Position numbers and translations under genes: made by a program. A model generated the notes under the pieces. That model saw nothing but the letters and a program-made list of their open reading frames with translations. It did no database searches and was not told the DNA's origin. This document shows, piece after piece, positions 1 through 55,258 of a stretch of 55,258 nt of DNA. Origin of the DNA: an uncultured Alphaproteobacteria bacterium (lineage in GTDB: Bacteria > Pseudomonadota > Alphaproteobacteria > UBA2966 > CAIVPW01). The stretch lies in the NCBI GenBank assembly GCA_903907895.1, contig CAIVPW010000075.1, forward strand, positions 1-55,258, written 5' to 3'. Numbering within the stretch: the stretch's first letter is position 1; every line of letters begins with the position of its first letter.

Positions 1-1
1 C

Positions 2-682
2 GTTCTGCAGGATGCCGGCATTGCAGCGGACATCGCTGACGCGGCCGACCTTGAATCGCGTGACGGTGCATTGTGGCACGACGGAAACCGCGTCGACCTC
101 GTCTACAACCGGCTTGTCGATTTCACGCTTGCCGATCCGCGGCACGCTGCGTTGCGGGAGGCCTACGAGCGCCGGACGGTCGTGCTGACGCCGAGCCCGC
201 ATGTGCACGCGGAGCTTGCGGACAAGCGCAACCTCACGTTCCTCTCCGACCCGGACCGCGTGCGGGGCGCCGGACTGAGCGCAGAGCACGTCGCCACGCT
301 GCAGCTCCATGTCCCAGCGACAGTGGAGGTCACGGCGGAGCGCGCGGATGCCCTGTGGGCTGCGCGCAACAAGCTGTTCTTCAAGCCGGCCTCCGGCTAC
401 GGCAGCAAGGCCGTCTATCGCGGTGACAAGCTCACCCGCGCGGCCTGGGCCGGCATTCTCGCCGGTGATTACGTTGCGCAGCAGTTCGTTCCGCCCAGCG
501 AGCGCACGGTTACCGCGGACGGAGCGCTCCACGCGCGCAAGACGGATGTCCGGCTGTACACCTACGATGGTCAGGTGTTGCTGGCGGCAGCGCGCATCTA
601 TCAGGGGCAAACCACCAACTTCCGCACGGTAGGCGGCGGGTTTGCTCCCGTGGTGGTCGTAGGGGAGCCGGTGCCGGCCTGA
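2..682 (+). CDS. ATP-grasp-fold protein, C-terminal part (5' end outside the window)
   Basis: The frame of ORF 71..682 stays open back to base 2, and the listed first codon is an internal TTG. The pattern KPASGYGSKAVY ... YVAQQFV ... DVRLYTY ... TTNFRTVGGGFAPV resembles the C-terminal half of ATP-grasp ligases (glutathionylspermidine-synthase-like or circularly permuted ATP-grasp). The family call is from memory only. Confidence 0.45.
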   Translation, partial: VLQDAGIAADIADAADLESRDGALWHDGNRVDLVYNRLVDFTLADPRHAALREAYERRTVVLTPSPHVHAELADKRNLTFLSDPDRVRGAGLSAEHVATLQLHVPATVEVTAERADALWAARNKLFFKPASGYGSKAVYRGDKLTRAAWAGILAGDYVAQQFVPPSERTVTADGALHARKTDVRLYTYDGQVLLAAARIYQGQTTNFRTVGGGFAPVVVVGEPVPA

Positions 683-46273: not shown

Positions 46274-46768
46274 ATGAAACTCAGTTCTCGCGGCCGCTAC
46301 GCCGTCGTGGCGATGGCGGACCTGGCGATCCACAGCTCGGAACGCCCCGTGTCGCTGGCAGAGATCGCCGAGCGGCAGGAGATTTCGCTGTCGTACCTCG
46401 AGCAGCTGTTCGGCAAGCTGCGCCGCAACCACTTGGTCCGCAGCGTGCGCGGCCCCGGTGGGGGCTACAAGCTGGCGCGCCCCGGCGAGGAAGTCCGCGT
46501 GGCCGACATCGTCGTCGCTGTGGACGAGCCGCTGTCCGCCACGCGCTGCCGCCCCGGCTCGGCCACCGGCTGTCACTCGACGCGCGGCCGATGTCTCACC
46601 CACGACTTGTGGGAAGAACTCGGCAACCAGATTCACCTCTATCTCAGCTCCGTCTCGCTGGCCGACGTCGTAAACCGACGCGTTCTTGGCACCAGCGGGC
46701 TCCTAATGCGTGCCGGCCTCACCCGTGTTGAGCCGCGCAAGCTGCCCGAGCCGACGCCGGCCGAGTAG
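46274..46768 (+). CDS. iscR: Rrf2-family Fe-S cluster regulator IscR
   Basis: MKLSSRGRYAVVAMADLA wHTH and a cluster-ligand region CRPGSATGCHSTRGRCLTH. It lies 13 nt after cysE and 4 nt before the first desulfurase gene. Confidence 0.9.
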   Translation: MKLSSRGRYAVVAMADLAIHSSERPVSLAEIAERQEISLSYLEQLFGKLRRNHLVRSVRGPGGGYKLARPGEEVRVADIVVAVDEPLSATRCRPGSATGCHSTRGRCLTHDLWEELGNQIHLYLSSVSLADVVNRRVLGTSGLLMRAGLTRVEPRKLPEPTPAE

Positions 46769-46772
46769 CCCG

Positions 46773-47939
46773 ATGGACAACCGCCTCGCCTATCTCGACT
46801 ACAACGCGACCACTCCGGTGAAGCCGGATGTGCTGGCGCGCGTGGCCGAGGCGTTGGTGATTGGCGGCAACCCGTCGTCGGTACACCAGGCCGGTCGCCT
46901 TGCCCGCGCTGTCGTCGATCAGGCGCGCGACGCCGTTGCCGACCTCGTCGGTGCCAGCCCCGAGCAAGTCCTTTTCACCAGCGGCGCGACCGAGGCCAAC
47001 ACGCTGGCCATCCGCAGCCTCGCCGCCGGTGCGGCGCGCGCCCAGCGTGTCTGCGCCGCGACCCGCATCCTGATTTCGGCCGTCGAGCACGACTCGGTGG
47101 TCGGCGCCGCCTATGCCGCCGACCTGCCCGTCGAGGAAATCCCGGTCACGGCCGCCGGTGTTGTCGACCTCGCCGCGCTCGAGCGCATGCTCGGCGCCGG
47201 TGGTCCGGCGGTGGTCGTCCTGATGCTCGCCAACAACGAGACCGGCGTGATCCAGCCGGTGGCCGCCGCGGCGGCCCTGGTGCATTCCTTCGGCGGCTGG
47301 CTGCACTGCGATGCGGTGCAGGGCCCCGGCCGTGTGGCTGTCGATTTCGAAGCGCTCGCCGTCGATACGCTGACCCTTTCCAGCCACAAGATGGGCGGGC
47401 CGCAGGGCGTCGGTGCCCTGGTGGTGCGTCATCTGGCACTGGTGTCGCCGCAGTTCGTGGGCGGTGGCCAGGAGCGCGGCCTACGCGCCGGCACCGAGAA
47501 CGTGGCCGGCATCGCGGGTTTCGGTGTGGCGGCGCATCTGAGCGCGAACGATGTCGCGCGCTCTAATGAAATCAATGAGTTGCGGCGCGACCTGGAAGTT
47601 GAATTGCAGAAGATTGCGCCCGATGTCCGGATATTTGGCACATCGGCCGAACGACTGCCCAATACGAGCTGCTTTGCGGTTGCCGGCGTTGCCGCCGAAA
47701 CCCAGGTCATTGCTCTCGACCTCGCCGACGTTGCCGTGAGTGCCGGGGCCGCGTGCTCGTCGGGCAAGGTCCGCACTTCGCGTGCGCTGCGTGCGATGGG
47801 CGTACCCGAGGATACCGCAAGTTGCGCCATCCGGGTCAGCCTCGGCTGGAACACCCGTCGCGCTGATATCGAACGTTTCCTGGGCGCGTGGTCGGAACTG
47901 ATGGACCGCCGCCGCCGTCGCGAGCCCAAAGCCGCCTGA
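46773..47939 (+). CDS. Cysteine desulfurase, NifS-like (second desulfurase of the cluster)
   Basis: ATG 46773. [12 protein letters not shown] lysine [10 protein letters not shown], active-site cysteine SAGAACSSG. Confidence 0.88.
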
Positions 47940-47959: not shown

Positions 47960-49189
47960 ATGAGCAAGGCCAACATTCAGCTGCCCATCTACCTGGACTA
48001 CCAGGCCACCACGCCCACCGATCCGCGCGTCGTGGAGGAAATGCTGCCGTACTTCACGACCAAGTTCGGCAACCCGCACTCCCGCAGCCACTCGTTCGGC
48101 TGGGAGGCCGAGCAGGGGGTGGAGCATGCCCGCGAACAGGTGGCCGCCCTCATTGGCGCCAACGAGAAGGAAGTCATCTTCACGTCGGGCGCCACCGAAT
48201 CGAACAACCTCGCCATCAAGGGCGTGGCACGCTTCTACAAGGACAAGCGCAACGAGATCGTCACGGTGGTCACCGAGCACAAGTGCGTGCTCGACGCCTG
48301 CCGCCACCTGCAGGAGGAGGAGGGCTTCAAGGTCACCTACCTCGCGGTGCAGCAGAACGGCATCGTCGACCTCGAACACCTCCGCCAGGCAGTGACCGAC
48401 AAGACGGCGCTGGTCTCGGTCATGGCCGTGAACAACGAGATCGGCGTCATCCAGCCGCTCAAGGAGATCGCCGCCATCGCCCACGAAAAGGGGGCGTTCT
48501 TCCACACCGACGCCGCCCAGGCGGCGGGCAAGATCCCCCTCGACGTCGAGGACATGCACATCGACCTGATGAGCATCTCGGCCCACAAGATGTACGGCCC
48601 CAAGGGCGTCGGCGCCCTCTACGTGCGCCGCAAGCCGCGCGTGCGCCTGCATGCTCTGATCCACGGCGGCGGCCAGGAGCGCGGCATGCGCTCGGGCACG
48701 CTGCCCACCCCGCTGATCGTCGGTTTCGGCAAGGCGGCCGAAATCGCCCGCCTCGAGATGGCCAAGGACAACGAGCGCATCCGCATGCTGTCGGACCGCC
48801 TGTTCAATGGCATCAACAACGAACTGAAGGACGTGGTCCTGAACGGCGATCGCGCCCAGCGCATCCCGGGCAACCTCAACCTCTCGTTCTCCTACGTCGA
48901 AGGCGAGTCGCTCATGATGGGCATCCGCGACATCGCGGTGTCCTCCGGCTCGGCCTGCACCTCCGCTTCGCTGGAGCCGTCCTACGTGCTCCGGGCGCTG
49001 GGTGTTGAGGAGGAGATGGCGCACACCTCGATCCGCCTAGGCATCGGCCGGTTCACGACCGAAGCAGAGATCGATTACACGGTCGAGACCGTGGTGAAGC
49101 ACGTGAAGAAGCTGCGCGAGATGAGCCCTTTGTGGGAGCTCGTGCAGGAGGGCGTCGACCTAAAGTCGATCCAGTGGTCGGACCATTAA
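47960..49189 (+). CDS. iscS: Cysteine desulfurase IscS
   Basis: ATG 47960 after [46 protein letters not shown], and the C-terminal IQWSDH tail typical of IscS. Confidence 0.95.
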
Positions 49190-49252
49190 TGGCCTGCCGC
49201 CGCGCTTGACGGCAGCGGCGGCTGAGCCATCTTGACGGGTAGGGAGAGAGAC

Positions 49253-49681
49253 ATGGCATACGGCGAAAAGCTCATCGACCATTACGAGAACCCCCGCAAC
49301 ATCGGGTCTATGGACAAGAATGCCCAGGACGTCGGTACCGGGCTCGTAGGCGCGCCGGCGTGCGGCGACGTCATGAAGCTGCAGATCAAGGTGAGCCCCG
49401 AGGGCATCATCGAGGACGCCAAGTTCAAGACTTTTGGATGTGGCTCGGCCATTGCATCGTCCTCCCTCGTCACCGAGTGGGTGAAGGGCAAGACCGTCGA
49501 TCAGGCCGAAACCATCAAGAACACGGAAATCGCACAGTATCTGGCCCTGCCGCCGGTGAAGATTCACTGCTCGGTGCTGGCCGAAGACGCGATCAAGGCC
49601 GCCATCGCCGACTACCGCAAGAAGGCGGGCAAGGTTGCCCATGCCGCCGCGGACGAGCCGGCAAAGGTCGCCGCCGAGTAA
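49253..49681 (+). CDS. iscU: Fe-S cluster assembly scaffold IscU
   Basis: ATG 49253. YENPRNIGS, GAPACGDVMKL, FKTFGCGSAIASSS, LPPVKIHCSVLAEDAI. Confidence 0.95.
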   Translation: MAYGEKLIDHYENPRNIGSMDKNAQDVGTGLVGAPACGDVMKLQIKVSPEGIIEDAKFKTFGCGSAIASSSLVTEWVKGKTVDQAETIKNTEIAQYLALPPVKIHCSVLAEDAIKAAIADYRKKAGKVAHAAADEPAKVAAE

Positions 49682-49715
49682 CGATACGACCCCTACGACG
49701 AAGGAACCCGAGGCA

Positions 49716-50048
49716 ATGGCTTCCGTCATCACCATCACCGACGCCGCGGCACAGCGAGTGGCCGCCATGATTGCCGGCCGCGGCAAGCCGAGCGAAGGCG
49801 TGCGCATCGGCGTCCGCACCGCCGGCTGCTCCGGCCTGTCCTACACGCTCGAGTTCGCCGACCAGGTGCAGGCGGCCGACGAAGTGGTGCGCGACAAGGG
49901 CGTCACGGTGTTCGTGGACCCCAAGGCGACCGTGTACCTCGTCGGTACCGAGATGGATTTCGTCGAGAGCGACCTGCAGTCCGGGTTCGTCTTCAAGAAT
50001 CCCAACGAACGTGCGCGCTGCGGCTGCGGCGAGTCGTTTCACGTCTGA
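49716..50048 (+). CDS. iscA: Fe-S cluster insertion protein IscA (HesB family)
   Basis: ATG 49716. GVRTAGCSGLSY and C-terminal CGCGESF. Confidence 0.92.
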   Translation: MASVITITDAAAQRVAAMIAGRGKPSEGVRIGVRTAGCSGLSYTLEFADQVQAADEVVRDKGVTVFVDPKATVYLVGTEMDFVESDLQSGFVFKNPNERARCGCGESFHV

Positions 50049-50099
50049 TCCTGCTGCGGGCGGCGTTCTGCCGCCCGCACGATCTTCCGGTCCCTTTCC

Positions 50100-50693
50100 A
50101 TGACTGCGGCTACTCCATGCTGGTCGTGCGGCGGCACGACGGACGGACTGTTTTGCGCGCAGTGCAATGCGCTGCAGCCGCCCAAGCCCGGCAACCTGTT
50201 CGCCCGCTTCGGCGTTCCGGCGGCGTTCGACGTTGACGGCGCCGAGCTCGAACGCCGCTACTTCGAGCTCCAGCGCAAGCTGCACCCCGACAAGTTCGCC
50301 TCGCGCGGCGCCAAAGAGCGCGAATACTCGCTGCAACACACCGCCAACCTGAACGAGGCGCACAAGGTCCTGCGCTCGCCGCTGTTGCGCGCGGAGCACC
50401 TGCTGCGCGTCAAAGGTCACGCCATGCCGGACGGCGAGCACACGGTGGCCGACCCCGAGATTCTGATGCACGCCCTGGAGATGCGCGAAGCCCTGGCCGA
50501 AGCATCGACGCGGGCGGAGATCGAGGCCGTGGCCGCCGGCGCGCGCACCGAAGCGGCCGGCATCGTGCAGGAGCTTTCGGCAGCGTTCGCGGCGAACGAT
50601 CTGGCGGTGGCCGAGCGCCTGGCGCTGCGCCTGCGCTACCTCGAGAAATTCTCCGGCGAAGCGCGCGAGCGGCGCGTGCGGGCCAGCGCCTGA
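50100..50693 (+). CDS. hscB: Fe-S assembly co-chaperone HscB with N-terminal CxxC-x9-CxxC
   Basis: J-domain with LHPDKF, and a C-terminal helical domain. N-terminus CWSCGGTTDGLFCAQC. Confidence 0.88.
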   Translation: MTAATPCWSCGGTTDGLFCAQCNALQPPKPGNLFARFGVPAAFDVDGAELERRYFELQRKLHPDKFASRGAKEREYSLQHTANLNEAHKVLRSPLLRAEHLLRVKGHAMPDGEHTVADPEILMHALEMREALAEASTRAEIEAVAAGARTEAAGIVQELSAAFAANDLAVAERLALRLRYLEKFSGEARERRVRASA

Positions 50694-52618
50694 TGGCCAC
50701 GCTGCTGCAGATCCACGAGCCGGGCCAGACGCCCATGCCGCACGCCAAGCGTGCGCTCGCGGTCGGCATCGACCTTGGCACCACCAACAGCCTCGTCGCC
50801 GTTTCCGAGAACAACAAGCCGATGGTCCTGGAGGACGTGAACGGCCGCGCGCTCCTGCCGTCCGCCGTGCTGTACCAGGCCGGCCAGATCGTCGTCGGCG
50901 ATCAGGCCCGTGCGGCGTTGAAGGATCACCCCGAGCGCGTCGTCGTCTCGGTGAAGCGCCTGATGGGCCGTGGGGCCGAGGACGTCATGCGCGTCGCCAA
51001 CCAGCTCGCCTACGAGCTCGACAGCGCCCAGGCCGGCATGGTGCGCATCAAGGCCGGCGGCCGCGTGCTGACGCCGGTCGAAGTCTCCGGCCACATCCTG
51101 CAAGAGCTGCGGGCCCGCGCCGAACGTGTGACGGGGCGCGAGGTGCGTCAGGCCGTCATCACCGTGCCCGCCCATTTCGACGACGGCGCCCGCAATGCCA
51201 CCAAGGACGCGGCGAAGCTCGCCGGCCTGCAGGTGTTGCGCCTCGTCAACGAACCGACCGCCGCCGCGCTCGCCTACGGCCTGGATAAGGGCGCGGAAGG
51301 CGTGTTCGTGGTCTATGACCTCGGCGGCGGCACCTTCGACGTGTCGGTTCTGCGGCTGCAGATGGGCGTGTTCCAGGTGCTCGCCACCGGCGGCCACGCC
51401 CAGCTCGGCGGCGACGACTTCGACCGCGCCGTGGCCGAGTACTTCCTCGCCGACCGCGCCCGCATCCTCGGGCCCGAGAAGCTGTCGTCGGGCGACACCA
51501 AGCGGGCGCTCGCCGTCGCGCGCCAGGCGCGCGAGCACCTCACCACCCACGAAACCGGTTCGTGGCCGCTCGACATCAACCATCGCCTGTCGTGGCAGAG
51601 CCTCGACCAGGACACGCTGAACCAGCTCATCGCGTCCAAGGTCGACCAGACCATCGGGATTTGCCGCGGTGTGCTGGCCGACGCGAATCTGGAACCAGAA
51701 GAACTCAACGGCGTCGTGCTGGTTGGTGGCGCTACGCGCACGCCGCTCGTGCAGAAGCAGGTGGCGGCGTACTTCGGCAAGCCGCCGCTCGCCGACATCG
51801 ACCCCGACCAGGTCGTGGCCCTCGGCGCCGCCCTGCAGGCAGAGGCCCTCACCCAGGGCTCCGATGCATTGCTGCTCGATGTTACGCCCCTGTCGCTCGG
51901 CATCGAGACCATGGGCGGGCTCACCGAGAAGATCATTCCGCGCAACACGCCGATTCCCGCCGCTATCGCCCAGGAATTCACCACCTACCAGGACGGTCAG
52001 ACGGCGATGATGATTCATGTCGCCCAGGGCGAGCGCGAGCTCATCGCCGAGAACCGCAGCCTGGCGCGCTTCGTCCTCCAGGGCATTCCGCCGCTCACCG
52101 CCGGGGCTGCCCGCATTCGCGTGCTGTTCGCGGTCGATGCCGACGGCCTGCTCACGGTCAGCGCCGAGGAAACGACGACCGGCGTGCGCCAGGAAGTCGC
52201 GGTGAAGCCGAGCTACGGCCTGTCCGACGAAGAGCTCGCGGCCATGCTGCGGGCGAGTATCGAGCACGCCCGCGACGACATGGAGGAACGCACCTTGCGC
52301 GAGGCGCGGGTGGACGGCGAGCGCCTGCTGCATGCCATCGAGGCGGCGTTGCGCATCGACGCCGATCTCTTGGAGGCGGGCGAACGGCAGAGCATTGCCG
52401 GGGGTGTCGAACGCCTGCGCGCCGCCATCGCCGGCCGCGACCGCGGCGCGATCCTGGACGGAGTCGAGGCGCTCAACGCTGTCACCGAGCCGTTCGCGGC
52501 GCGGCGCATGGACCGCGGCATTCGGGCCGCCCTGCAGGGAGTGGCCGTCTCAGCCCTGGCCGAGCGGCTGGCCGAGCGCCCTGAGGGCGCGGACGGAGGC
52601 CATTCAACGCAAAAATAG
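50693..52618 (+). CDS. hscA: Fe-S assembly chaperone HscA (Hsp70 family)
   Basis: The ATG overlaps the hscB stop (TGATG). GIDLGTTNS, DLGGGTFDVS, VLVGGATRTP. Confidence 0.95.
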   Translation: MATLLQIHEPGQTPMPHAKRALAVGIDLGTTNSLVAVSENNKPMVLEDVNGRALLPSAVLYQAGQIVVGDQARAALKDHPERVVVSVKRLMGRGAEDVMRVANQLAYELDSAQAGMVRIKAGGRVLTPVEVSGHILQELRARAERVTGREVRQAVITVPAHFDDGARNATKDAAKLAGLQVLRLVNEPTAAALAYGLDKGAEGVFVVYDLGGGTFDVSVLRLQMGVFQVLATGGHAQLGGDDFDRAVAEYFLADRARILGPEKLSSGDTKRALAVARQAREHLTTHETGSWPLDINHRLSWQSLDQDTLNQLIASKVDQTIGICRGVLADANLEPEELNGVVLVGGATRTPLVQKQVAAYFGKPPLADIDPDQVVALGAALQAEALTQGSDALLLDVTPLSLGIETMGGLTEKIIPRNTPIPAAIAQEFTTYQDGQTAMMIHVAQGERELIAENRSLARFVLQGIPPLTAGAARIRVLFAVDADGLLTVSAEETTTGVRQEVAVKPSYGLSDEELAAMLRASIEHARDDMEERTLREARVDGERLLHAIEAALRIDADLLEAGERQSIAGGVERLRAAIAGRDRGAILDGVEALNAVTEPFAARRMDRGIRAALQGVAVSALAERLAERPEGADGGHSTQK

Positions 52619-52735
52619 GGTTCCGTTTGCCGCCCGGAACGGCCATGTTCTGCGCCGCTTGGCCGAAAGGCGAGGGGCGGGGGCCCCAACTGGCGTGGCG
52701 CCCGTGGGGGGAGCCGAGGGGAGTTCCGGTAACAG

Positions 52736-53074
52736 ATGCCAAAGATGACGTTCTTGCACCCAGACGGGAAGCGCCAGGAAGTGGACGCTCCGCTCGGCCT
52801 CTCGGTGCTGGAGATTGCGCACCGCAACAACATCGACCTCGAAGGCGCGTGCGAAGGCTCGCTCGCCTGCTCGACCTGCCACGTCATCGTAGATCCGAAG
52901 TTCTACGACAAGATTCCGGAGGCCAAGGACGAAGAGGAAGACATGCTCGACCTCGCCTTCGGCCTGACGCACACCTCGCGCCTCGGTTGCCAGATCATCA
53001 TCACGCCGCAGCTGGATGGCCTCGTCGTCTCGCTGCCGTCGGCGACGCGCAACATGCTCCTCGAAGGGGCGTGA
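52736..53074 (+). CDS. fdx: [2Fe-2S] ferredoxin, adrenodoxin/ISC type
   Basis: [11 protein letters not shown] ... LGC is the Cys4 pattern. 112 aa. Confidence 0.93.
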
Positions 53075-53081
53075 CAGCGCC

Positions 53082-53282
53082 GTGGCGCTGAAGTGGACCG
53101 ACGTGCAGGAACTGGCGATCCAGTTGGAGGATGCGCACCCCGACGCCGACGTGGTGAACCTGCGCTTCACCGACCTGCACAAATGGGTGCGCGCGCTGCC
53201 CGGCTTTTCCGACGATCCGAACAAGTCGAACGAGAAGATCCTCGAAGCCATCCAGATGGCCTGGCTGTCCGAGCGGGACTAG
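53082..53282 (+). CDS. iscX: Fe-S assembly protein IscX
   Basis: GTG 53082 lies 7 nt after the fdx stop. LKWTDVQELAIQLEDAHPD ... SNEKILEAIQMAWL. 66 aa, the same length as classical IscX. Confidence 0.8.
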   Translation: MALKWTDVQELAIQLEDAHPDADVVNLRFTDLHKWVRALPGFSDDPNKSNEKILEAIQMAWLSERD

Positions 53283-53301
53283 CCAACTCGTTCTTCCGCA
53301 C

Positions 53302-54186
53302 ATGACGCGAGGTTCGCTCACCGGGGCTGCGTTCGCGGTCACTGCAGCCTTGCTGTTTGGCTCGGCGATCCCGTCGTCCAAGGTGCTGCTCGGCGACCTC
53401 AATGTATTCCTGCTGACAGGCCTCCTCTATGGCGGCTCCGTCATCGGCCTCGTCATCGCCGGGCCGATCTTGCGCCACTTGCAGGTGATCACGGCGACGC
53501 CGCTGCGGCGCGGCGAGTGGCGTTGGCTGGCGGGCTCGGTCGTGGCGGGCGGTTTGGCTGCGCCGCTCTTGCTGTTGCTCGGCCTCGACTGGACCCCGGC
53601 TTCCACCGCGGGGCTGCTGATGAACTTCGAAGCACCGCTCACGGCAGTATTCGCGGCACTCGTGTTCGGCGAACACGTTGGCCGCCGCGTGATCTTTGGC
53701 ATCGCAGCGATCACCGTGGGCGCCGCGCTCATTTCCTGGCAGGGGTCGGCCGACACCAACGGCTGGCTCGGCCCGCTCGTGGTGGTCGGCTCCGCCGTGG
53801 CCTGGGCGCTCGACAACAACATCGTCCGGCGCATTGCGCACACCGATCCGGTACGGCTGGCAACCATCCGCGCCGGCGTTGCCACCGTGCTGTACTTGGC
53901 GATTGCCTTCGCCACCGGCCATTCGCTTCCGGCGCTGCCGGTGCTCGCCCAGTGCATGGTGCTAGGCCTGTTCGGCTACGGCCTCGCGCTGACGCTGTTC
54001 TTTCTCAGCCTGCGGTACATCGGTGCCGCCCGCGCCGCCGCGTTCTTTGCGGCCGGGCCGTTCGTCGGCGCCATGGGCGGCATCGCTGCGCTCGGCGAAC
54101 CGCTGACCCTGGCATTCGTGGCGGCCGCGGCGTGCATGCTGCTCGGCATCTGGCTGGTACTGAGCGCGGGCACGGCGCACAGCTAG
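53302..54186 (+). CDS. EamA/DMT-family transporter
   Basis: 294 aa with about ten TM segments in two repeats. Confidence 0.85.
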   Translation: MTRGSLTGAAFAVTAALLFGSAIPSSKVLLGDLNVFLLTGLLYGGSVIGLVIAGPILRHLQVITATPLRRGEWRWLAGSVVAGGLAAPLLLLLGLDWTPASTAGLLMNFEAPLTAVFAALVFGEHVGRRVIFGIAAITVGAALISWQGSADTNGWLGPLVVVGSAVAWALDNNIVRRIAHTDPVRLATIRAGVATVLYLAIAFATGHSLPALPVLAQCMVLGLFGYGLALTLFFLSLRYIGAARAAAFFAAGPFVGAMGGIAALGEPLTLAFVAAAACMLLGIWLVLSAGTAHS

Positions 54187-54252
54187 CCCTACGGCCGCCG
54201 GCATACTCCGCCCGTGTGATAGCGAAATTCTGCGGCCTCGTTATCTTTGAGT

Positions 54253-54361
54253 CATCCGAACGAACACAAGTTCAGTGCAGACTGGATGCAGTGATTGATC
54301 TCGGAGATGGAGCCGGCCGGGCTCTCGACTAACCTCGAGAAACCGACCGGCTCCGTGCCCT
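54253..54361 (+). repeat. Structured repeat element, copy A (candidate leader RNA/ncRNA)
   Basis: The conserved 5' half and a nested hairpin (outer 54310-54320/54343-54353, inner 54323-54328/54335-54340) are shared with copy B. Confidence 0.5.
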
Positions 54362-54413
54362 ATGGCGCGCGCGGGGCCGCCAGCGTCTGAGCGACTACCT
54401 GCCGCAACCGTCT

Positions 54414-54632
54414 ATGCCGGTGCAACTCGACGCCCGCACTCTGCTTCGTTCGCGGGGCAGGGTGGCGTCCGATGCGCATGCGGCGTCTCTTTCCGCTGTG
54501 CCGCCGCCCGCCGTTCCGTTCCCCCAATATCCCGCACCATTGCTCGCCAACCTGGATACCGCGTACGCGGCGTGGCGCCGGGCAGGTCGCGCGTTTATGG
54601 TTCCTGCATCCGATCGAACACAACGTCAGTGA
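54414..54632 (+). CDS. Doubtful 72-codon ORF between the two repeat copies (possible remnant of a duplicated Sel1-gene 5' end)
   Basis: It has an ATG start in the same ATGCCGG context seen after copy B. There is no clear SD, third-position GC is lower than in neighbouring genes, and the ORF ends inside copy B. Confidence 0.2.
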   Translation: MPVQLDARTLLRSRGRVASDAHAASLSAVPPPAVPFPQYPAPLLANLDTAYAAWRRAGRAFMVPASDRTQRQ

Positions 54633-54723
54633 AAGCTGATCGAGTGATTGAACGGAGAGAAGCCGGCCGGAGACTCTCAACTCTGTTGAGAATTCTTCGA
54701 CCGGCTTCGTGATTCTGCGCCCT
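54607..54723 (+). repeat. Structured repeat element, copy B (candidate 5' leader of the Sel1-repeat gene)
   Basis: Same architecture as copy A (outer stem 54659-54670/54698-54708, inner 54675-54681/54685-54691). It ends 38 nt before ATG 54762. Confidence 0.5.
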
Positions 54724-54761
54724 ACTTGACCAAAGCCGGCGAGAGGGTCTGCAATGCCGGA

Positions 54762-55258
54762 ATGCACGTTCGTCTACGAGCCTGGGTGATCGGCCTTGTT
54801 GCCCTTGCTGCCGCACAAGCCGCCAGTGCCGATGCCTTGGAGGACGGCTGGCGCGCCTACATTCGCAGCGATTTCGCGACGGCGCGGGAACTGCTGACCC
54901 CATTCGCCGAGCAAGGCAGCGCGCGCGCCCAGGCCATCCTGGCGACGATGTATCGCTTCGGCGAAGGCGTTGAGATCGACCCGGAGAAATCGGCGTTCCT
55001 GTTCCGGCAGGCGAGCCTGCAGGGCAGCGTGGGCGCCCAATACGACTTGGCGCAGCTCTACCTGACCGGATTTGGCGTCGAGCAGAGCATTGCGCACGCC
55101 ATCATGTGGCTCACGATCGCCCTCGACGAGATCGGCTATGAGGAATTCGTGCGCGACTCCGGCGCCAGCGTGCGCCAGCCCATCACCGAGTTCCGCCAAA
55201 ACGTGGTGTCGCAGGCCAACTTCCTGGAGCTGGCACGCGCGCTCGACATGGCCGCCAC
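54762..55258 (+). CDS. Secreted Sel1-repeat (SLR/TPR-like) protein, 3' end outside the window
   Basis: The open frame from ATG 54762 runs to the window edge, which is why it is absent from the ORF track. Signal peptide MHVRLRAWVIGLVALAAAQAASA. Sel1 repeats GSARAQAILATMYRFGEGVEIDPEKSAFLFRQASLQGSVGAQYDLAQLYLTGFGVEQS. Confidence 0.8.
   Translation, partial: MHVRLRAWVIGLVALAAAQAASADALEDGWRAYIRSDFATARELLTPFAEQGSARAQAILATMYRFGEGVEIDPEKSAFLFRQASLQGSVGAQYDLAQLYLTGFGVEQSIAHAIMWLTIALDEIGYEEFVRDSGASVRQPITEFRQNVVSQANFLELARALDMAA

Follow-up and report, generated by a model that had tools for sequence, protein, structure and literature searches.

The last part of a 55,258-nt stretch of DNA from an uncultured alphaproteobacterium (contig CAIVPW010000075.1 of assembly GCA_903907895.1; hereafter the window) harbours two diverged copies, A and B, of an element of about 110 nt, located upstream of the gene for a small secreted Sel1-repeat protein. 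It is a genuine, conserved and strand-specific structured element, and we regard it as credible that it represents a new family of small RNAs with a narrow distribution. As to its nature, we see an even chance that A and B are paralogous genes for structured small non-coding RNAs (sRNAs) of ~105-115 nt, i.e. autonomous siblings linked to the Sel1 module.

Copy A (about 54254-54360) and copy B (about 54608-54715) both lie on the plus strand and 354 nt apart, in the positions and the common orientation that had been reported in an initial annotation of this DNA, and the direct and inverted repeats delivered by a repeat finder agree with that description. The 25-nt core of the 5' side (CATCCGAWCGAACACAANNTCAGTG) occurs exactly twice in the window, with none expected in 100 shuffles. 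A covariance model of the element scores copy A at 89-101 bits (E ~1e-20 to 1e-24) and copy B at 122-127 bits; run over the window with its filters off, it finds no copy beyond these two, the next match having 13.7 bits, and no further copy was found in ~9 kb of additional downstream flank (contig L001) or in the orthologous loci that lack the element. A scatter of copies in both orientations, as in REP- or MITE-like repeats, had been named as a possible outcome, but what the search revealed is two copies in 55 kb, at a single type of locus and in one orientation. The order at the end of the window is an EamA gene (53302-54186), copy A, a spacer, copy B and the 5' part of the Sel1-repeat gene (Table 1). 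The GC content of the element region had been described as lower than that of its surroundings, which is modestly true (0.60-0.63, compared with 0.62-0.72 across the last 7 kb, 48000-55258).

On the plus strand each copy consists of two hairpins, P1 and P2. P1 is an interrupted hairpin with the layout UCCG-A-CGA-A-CAC-AA-[tip stem of 6-7 bp with a 4-nt loop]-GUG-A-UUG-..-CGGA. It is formed by the 5' half of the element, the conservation of which had been recognised together with the two-tier hairpin that follows; that this half is itself a hairpin had been missed in the first reading. P2 is nested and GC-rich and comprises ~20 pairs with a variable tip and a conserved C-A mismatch. Its outer stem is GAGCCGG-C-CGG/CCG-A-CCGGCTC in copy A and GAAGCCGG-C-CGG/CG-A-CCGGCTTC in copy B, and its inner stem pairs TCTCGA with TCGAGA in copy A and TCTCAAC with GTTGAGA in copy B, as quoted correctly for both copies in the initial annotation. 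The tip loop of P1 is of the GNRA type (GAAA or GCAA) in copies of type B and GCAG in copies of type A. Most of the conserved nucleotides are located within the interrupted helix P1, including its conserved internal loops, while neither a multi-helix junction nor a pseudoknot or an antiterminator was found in the element.

RNAfold assigns the plus strand of copy A a folding energy of -53.3 kcal/mol (z = -5.2) and that of copy B -51.6 kcal/mol (z = -4.6), with none of 200 shuffles being equally stable; the minus strand of both copies folds more weakly and loses P1. When folded individually, every copy displays the architecture of P1 followed by P2. Moreover, the structure belongs to the plus strand because G-U accounts for 34 of the 371 paired cells, and these would read C-A on the opposite strand. 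Matches of the covariance model likewise reach 79-127 bits on the plus strand versus at most 28 bits on the minus strand.

Relatives of the element were reached through homologues of the Sel1 protein, whose contigs were fetched and searched throughout with the covariance model, which was built from the first copies and subsequently rebuilt. Outside the window, four related metagenomic lineages (L017, L022, L029 and L034; Table 1) were found by the model to possess the element, with five complete copies and a single 3' fragment among them. Covariation was assessed on seven distinct full copies from five closely related lineages. An alignment that is blind to structure (MAFFT, evaluated with RNAalifold) recovers P1 and the outer stem of P2 and contains seven pairs that have changed on both sides. 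In an alignment fitted to the model 94.6% of the cells pair, and nine pairs are compensatory, as compared with 4.4 +/- 1.4 in shuffles (1 of 500 shuffles) and at most two in slid controls; the covariation score is 0.24 versus 0.15, a value reached by none of 500 shuffles. For example, the closing pair of the P1 tip varies between U-G, U-A and G-C, an outer pair of P2 is changed from G-C to A-U in three copies, and a pair of the inner P2 stem from U-A to C-G. One pair of helix P1b is changed from C-G to G-C in L029 according to the sequence itself and to MAFFT with RNAalifold, but is scored as G-U in the model-fitted alignment. The element is thus a structured RNA under selection, supported by covariation on one strand, and the original observation of two old, diverged copies that keep a hairpin by compensatory changes, together with the covariance analysis that had been envisaged for it, now extends to seven copies.

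Identity among orthologous copies amounts to 84-90% for type A and 78-92% for type B, compared with 74-82% for the adjacent Sel1 coding sequence and 70% for the spacer. By contrast, A and B are only 63-75% identical to each other, the highest value (75.5%) being that within the window. As this is below the identity of the orthologues, the duplication precedes the divergence of the lineages, and A and B were both retained: copies of types A and B are old paralogues held under constraint by purifying selection.

All copies are found just upstream of the orthologous Sel1 gene module and on the same strand as Sel1. Their upstream neighbours vary: EamA precedes them in the window, a pentapeptide-repeat gene takes this place in L017, and L022 has an unrelated gene on the minus strand. 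The downstream partner is the Sel1 gene in every lineage that possesses the element. In L022 and L034 a second gene, referred to here as gene X, intervenes between the B-type copy and Sel1 (L022 1168-1812; L034 287-946); it encodes a secreted protein of 214 and 219 aa, respectively, which belongs to no Pfam or NCBIfam family and whose mature N-terminus in L022 is His-Lys-Pro. B-type copies therefore persist with gene X (L022, L034) as well as without it (window, L029). The only copy retained in L017 is of type A and stands ~225 nt in front of the Sel1 promoter, at a distance from any gene start. Losses have occurred even in close orthologous loci, since L021 has neither copy and L017 lacks B, and in a more distant Sel1 clade, which adjoins a tRNA-Thr gene, the element is never present among the loci fetched. 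As judged from homologues of HscA, the organism belongs to the uncultured Alphaproteobacteria, and its nearest named relatives are found in Rhodospirillales.

Searches beyond the Sel1 homologues yielded nothing comparable. The exact pattern CCGAWCGAACACAAN{10,30}AGTGATTGA has no match in GTDB genomes (species representatives), and proved too strict because it missed the copy of L017. Its sole match in JGI metagenomes (L008) was rejected as a chance hit: it is situated inside a coding open reading frame (ORF) of an AT-rich, plasmid-like contig and lacks P2. A looser pattern, CATCCGAN{2,3}GAACACANNNTCAGN{5,8}CTG, gave three GTDB matches, in coding DNA of Streptomyces, Coriobacteriia and a deltaproteobacterium, which were likewise dismissed as chance. 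A degenerate consensus pattern retrieved nothing from viral contigs, nor did blastn against plasmids and phages. Rfam 15 has no match at gathering thresholds in the whole window; in the region of the element the matches at E <= 10 are just spurious microRNA hairpins on P2 (17-25 bits, with thresholds of 48-83), and the copies in L017, L022, L029 and L034 have none at E <= 1. The element could not be assigned to any riboswitch or sRNA family from its sequence at the outset, and these scans bear that out.

The DNA in front of the element is conserved as well. About 74 nt upstream of six copies align essentially gap-free (a single 1-nt indel affects copy A of the window), and this DNA has no conserved secondary structure (consensus energy -1.4 kcal/mol). 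It contains blocks at fixed spacing from the A of the motif CATCCGA, namely GGAATAC at about -57 to -51, GTGGC at about -38 to -34 and TAYNTT at exactly -12 to -7, the last of which is a -10-like box found in all copies. The blocks of copy B recur with the same spacing before the B-type copies of L022 and L034 and more loosely before A-type copies. Among them is a perfect 12-bp palindrome (CCGCGTACGCGG, 54559-54570), which appears as CCGCGnnCGCGG before the B-type copies of L022 and L034 and could be the binding site of a regulator. From the geometry of the blocks we infer a promoter, the transcript of which would start with base one or two of the conserved RNA. The unit that was duplicated consists of the ~74 nt of upstream DNA together with the RNA, and has a period of 195 nt in L022. 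Readings of the blocks as a sigma-54 (TGGCAC-N5-TTGC) or an EcfG-type promoter (GGAAC-N16-17-CGTT) were discarded, as by eye the spacing misfits every copy.

At the opposite end, P2 is followed by short tails, which read GUGCCCUA and GUGAUUCU in the window and GUGUUUC in L022 and L034. Several copies possess tails that contain U residues (e.g. CCGGUUUCGUGUUUC, GUGAUUCUG, GUGUUUCG) and are not canonical U-tracts. Because a canonical U-tract is lacking after P2, it is uncertain how and where the transcripts would end, and polymerase may read through into the genes downstream. In agreement with an early remark that this is not a simple intrinsic terminator, no terminator with a T-run was called.

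The Sel1 gene has a predicted promoter of its own. Its protein product has 176 aa in full from ATG 54762 (completed from L001 11461-11991), and 16 homologues exist in a set of 5.8 billion proteins, the full-length ones having 175-179 aa and the same N-terminus. The motif TTGACC-18 nt-TGCAAT-6 nt-ATG is found in 9 of 11 orthologous loci aligned on the start codon, with -10 variants in other lineages (TGAAAT, TGCTAT, TGTTAT, TCCAAT), and it is kept whatever adjoins it upstream, be it tRNA-Thr(CGU), transposases of insertion sequences (IS) or other genes, and also where the element is missing. In L022 and L034, in which gene X precedes Sel1, the upstream sequence differs from this motif. No Shine-Dalgarno sequence is conserved upstream of Sel1 among the aligned loci. 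Given this promoter geometry and the lack of a conserved Shine-Dalgarno sequence, the Sel1 mRNA is predicted to be leaderless, and as the promoter is located downstream of copy B, the element would be upstream of the promoter and not a leader of Sel1. The view that it forms the Sel1 leader, as expressed in the initial annotation, consequently is not supported, for the conserved promoter motif lies between copy B and ATG 54762. The same applies to the supposed start context ATGCCGG (54754-54760), which overlaps the -10 box of this promoter and is out of frame with the Sel1 ORF; ATG 54754 opens just an 11-codon ORF. Gene callers place the Sel1 start at GTG 54786 instead of ATG 54762.

If A and B are autonomous sibling RNA genes, each RNA would have a promoter to itself, with transcription beginning at the A of CATCCGA (54254 in A, 54608 in B). 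It would fold into the interrupted P1 and the long GC-rich P2, and P2 with its U-containing tail would serve to terminate the transcript or make it stable. Most likely, the two RNAs would then act post-transcriptionally, by base pairing or by binding a protein. This interpretation is favoured by the promoter-like block that belongs to each copy, the lone A-type copy of L017, the presence of B-type copies with or without gene X, the independent promoter of a leaderless Sel1 mRNA and the strong conservation of both paralogues. Furthermore, the paralogues have been kept together, as is typical of sibling sRNAs: A and B stand in tandem in the window, L022 and L034 (A being partial in the latter), with orthologues being more similar than paralogues.

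Sibling sRNAs encoded in tandem are known from Rhizobiales in the form of AbcR1 and AbcR2 (PMC5461406, PMC8844928; reviewed in PMC4211561). By analogy, the organisation described here appears closest to such a system: two paralogous RNAs of ~100-120 nt are adjacent on the same strand, have their own upstream regions and are kept as a pair across relatives, and both systems have alphaproteobacterial hosts. Further tandem sibling sRNAs are PrrF1/PrrF2 of Pseudomonas and OmrA/OmrB of Escherichia coli. The element differs from all of these in sequence, with no similarity at the level of sequence or model (the Rfam scan, which should include them, finds nothing), and from AbcR in having neither a canonical Rho-independent terminator nor an evident single-stranded seed motif.

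Several observations weigh against autonomous sRNA genes. A scan with the sigma-70 consensus calls no promoter, the -35 region being non-canonical, and there are no terminator-like sites in 54100-54900 when at least 5 T in the 8 nt after a stem are demanded. By eye, no convincing promoter is discernible in the gap of at most 64 nt between copy B and gene X in L022 and L034. Conserved internal loops and GNRA tip loops are seen more often in folded RNAs that regulate in cis or bind proteins than in sRNAs that pair through a seed. No conserved pairing was found between the RNAs and the 5' ends of the Sel1 and gene X mRNAs nearby (z between -1.8 and +1.5), so that target and mechanism, including action in trans, can be proposed only tentatively. 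Finally, the basal helix P1a (UCCG/CGGA) contains no double compensatory change and for that reason is not proven, and the covariation statistics are inflated by phylogenetic inertia because the copies are few (seven distinct full ones) and their five lineages close.

Alternatively, the copies could be a cis-acting regulatory RNA transcribed from the promoter-like DNA ahead of it, in which P2 serves as a conditional attenuator, like a riboswitch or a leader under the control of a protein or ligand, with read-through to gene X and Sel1, or in which transcription through B occludes the Sel1 promoter. We consider this unlikely on balance, though it accounts for a good part of the data: the copies are co-oriented with the downstream genes and directly upstream of them, the B-type copy is at most 64 nt away from gene X in L022 and L034 without a clear promoter in between, the absence of a strong U-tract makes read-through plausible, and GNRA tetraloops are combined with conserved internal loops. 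Occlusion would profit from the short distance in the window, where the -35 box of Sel1 (from 54726) follows P2 of copy B (up to 54708) after a gap of 18 nt. Tandem riboswitches and attenuating leaders resemble the element in being repeated and co-oriented upstream of genes, in their GNRA and internal loops, and in a GC-rich 3' hairpin that could act as expression platform. On the other hand, Sel1 has a conserved promoter and a leaderless start whether the element is present or not. The tandem copies are also each preceded by a separate block of conserved DNA that lacks structure and includes a -10-like box, unlike tandem riboswitches on one transcript, and L017 has kept its A-type copy ~225 nt from any gene start. 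Neither an alternative antiterminator pairing nor an Rfam riboswitch match was identified in the element, which has no junction or pseudoknot, and no antiterminator or pairing that would sequester a Shine-Dalgarno sequence was identified before gene X in L022 and L034. A more specific and distinctly improbable variant is that of a new, aptamer-like class of regulatory RNA sensing a ligand or protein, with the conserved internal loops of P1 and the GNRA loop as a specific binding surface, two specialised paralogous versions of which would control a small secreted envelope module of Sel1-repeat protein and gene X in a Rhodospirillales-like lineage.

It is also rather improbable that we are dealing with neutral or structural DNA, i.e. 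an old local duplication kept by chance or gene conversion, with hairpins that serve to stop or insulate transcription between neighbouring genes and have no specific function as RNA. The distribution is indeed narrow, the element has been lost from some orthologous loci (completely in L021, copy B in L017), and the fact that A and B are most similar within the window makes some gene conversion possible. P2 resembles an intrinsic terminator as a stable GC-rich hairpin at the 3' end with U-containing tails in several copies, but it is not followed by a U-tract, its stem is far longer and more elaborate than required, and P1 is unrelated to termination. Against the neutral reading, the sequence of P1 and its internal loops are conserved beyond the needs of a stop hairpin, the conservation of orthologous copies equals or exceeds that of the coding DNA next to them and is far above that of the spacer, compensatory changes occur in both hairpins, and types A and B remain distinct across lineages.

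Mobile or repeated DNA elements that act as DNA, such as REP/BIME, RIME, MITEs, integron attC sites or the ends of IS200/IS605-type elements, are a highly improbable explanation. Like RIME, REP/BIME and MITEs, which are intergenic repeats known from alphaproteobacteria and others, the element measures ~100 nt, comprises two large imperfect palindromes (with the conserved C-A mismatch), is intergenic and varies in its presence between strains or orthologous loci, and IS elements and tRNA fragments are found near several Sel1 orthologues. These families are nonetheless set apart from it by the occurrence of two copies at one locus and in one orientation in the 55-kb window plus ~9 kb of flank, by the strand-specific G-U pairs and by the syntenic orthology of A and B across lineages, which points to vertical descent. 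In addition, neither the element nor the spacer has inverted repeats that link its two ends, no flanking target duplication is visible by eye, no transposase or integrase is encoded nearby in the window, and there are no matches in plasmids, phages or viral contigs and nothing real by exact patterns in GTDB representatives and JGI metagenomes. As regards attC, core sites (GTTRRRY/RYYYAAC) are absent by eye from the ends of the element, which forms two separate hairpins and not one.

That the region is a coding sequence or its remnant is hardly conceivable: ORFs of 72 and 116 codons on the plus strand and one of 135 codons on the minus strand span this GC-rich DNA, and the sole exact-pattern match in metagenomes (L008) is inside a coding ORF. 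However, the L008 match arose by chance and has no P2, and the copies are offset from one another by indels (1, 2 and 4 nt) that disrupt every frame. The conserved core was rejected as coding because by eye A and B carry it in different frames, and because it has no conserved start codon. The 72-codon ORF that had been noted with some doubt does exist (54414-54632, plus strand), but it is not conserved, its ATG being GCG in L017, the nearest relative that bears the element.

Should the element be expressed, it would constitute a new bacterial family of small structured RNAs with covariation support, known so far from uncultured alphaproteobacteria alone, in which old A and B paralogues stay linked to the gene for a small secreted Sel1-repeat protein. 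Sel1-type proteins of better-studied alphaproteobacteria include periplasmic signalling regulators, e.g. ExoR. With a promoter, a 110-nt RNA and a leaderless candidate target gene, the locus would be a compact unit in which to study the evolution of sibling RNAs and the control of envelope proteins by RNA, although its general importance is modest for now because the family is narrow.

Table 1. Coordinates of the element, its flanking features and its copies in related lineages. Promoters and start sites (+1) are predicted.
Feature	Locus	Position	Strand	Remarks
Promoter-like region of copy A	window	54183-54253	+	TATCTT 54242-54247, 7 nt before A of CATCCGA; GGCATAC ~54200-54206
Copy A (A-type RNA)	window	54254-54360	+	predicted +1 at A 54254; P1 54255-54305, tip loop GCAG; P2 54307-54356; short tail
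GC-rich spacer	window	54361-54536	+	shared with L017 lineage; contains 72-codon ORF (54414-54632)
Promoter-like region of copy B	window	54537-54607	+	GGATAC 54554-54559; CCGCGTACGCGG 54559-54570; GTGGCG 54572-54577; TATGGT 54596-54601
Copy B (B-type RNA)	window	54608-54715	+	predicted +1 at A 54608; P1 54609-54656, GNRA tip loop GAAA; P2 54659-54708; tail GUGAUUC
Sel1 promoter	window	54726-54761	+	-35 TTGACC 54726-54731; 18-nt spacer; -10 TGCAAT 54750-54755; 6 nt to ATG 54762
Sel1-repeat protein gene	window	54762-55258	+	runs past window end; Pfam Sel1, E = 6.9e-17; signal peptide MHVRLRAWVIGLVALAAAQAASA
A-type copy	L017	2174-2296	+	covariance model
A-type copy	L022	792-909	+	covariance model
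B-type copy	L022	987-1104	+	covariance model
B-type copy	L029	22-141	+	covariance model
B-type copy	L034	120-237	+	covariance model; the start of the contig also holds an A-type 3' end
Strain variants of copy B	L001, L002, L033		+	covariance model

The spacer is a stretch of ~170-190 nt directly after P2 of copy A (about 54358-54545; L017 2290-2470), which is common to the window and L017 only, differs between them by indels of 2, 3 and 9 nt and is absent from L022, where the gap between A and B is ~80 nt. It folds no better than shuffles (z = -0.3 and -0.1) and contains no inverted repeats, and a role as part of a longer structured RNA or of a MITE was rejected on these two grounds. An old partial duplication of the leader plus the 5' end of the gene had been suggested on account of related sequences behind both copies; the sequence after A and the promoter and coding sequence after B, however, align with a score of 19, as do shuffles (19.0 +/- 2.5). 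A decayed Sel1 promoter with 5' coding sequence was accordingly rejected for the spacer, the alignment score being equal to the shuffle mean in the window and in L017. Faint promoter-like echoes are seen there by eye (CTGAGC-18-TCTATG in the window, CTTGGCC-18-TGCGAC in L017) and are not significant. The two occurrences of ATTCTGCGNCCT, one before A (54227) and one after B (54712), are what chance would give for a 12-mer within 1.3 kb when one mismatch is allowed.

Among strains, copy A is invariant in the same contigs in which copy B varies. The variants of copy B include A54656G, which turns the basal U-A pair into U-G (L001, L003, L004), a 1-nt deletion in the region of window position 54680, which shortens the inner stem of P2 (L002, L006), and a change from G to A within CGGAGAG in L033 (at about position 63).

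Distant Sel1 orthologues are located directly downstream of tRNA-Thr(CGU) or its 3' fragment (L014 242-316, L024 98-168, L009 ~525-575, L026 ~183-228), an arrangement that suggests integration scars, with the Sel1 gene residing in variable, island-like DNA. In two lineages the Sel1 promoter region is bordered by transposase genes, one IS5-like (of which the end is present) and one IS6-like (L010 1-240; L027 ~1-220, minus strand; L028 3-221), and the -35 region of Sel1 has been replaced by the IS in L027 and L028. Elsewhere in the window, the first cysteine-desulfurase-like gene of the isc cluster is a single ORF (46710-47939), as in L002, and is divided into two in L001 (3431-4638) and L003, which is either a strain frameshift or an assembly error. 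Positions 1-14 of L034 are Illumina adapter sequence (GCTCTTCCGATCT) that has remained in the public ENA assembly.

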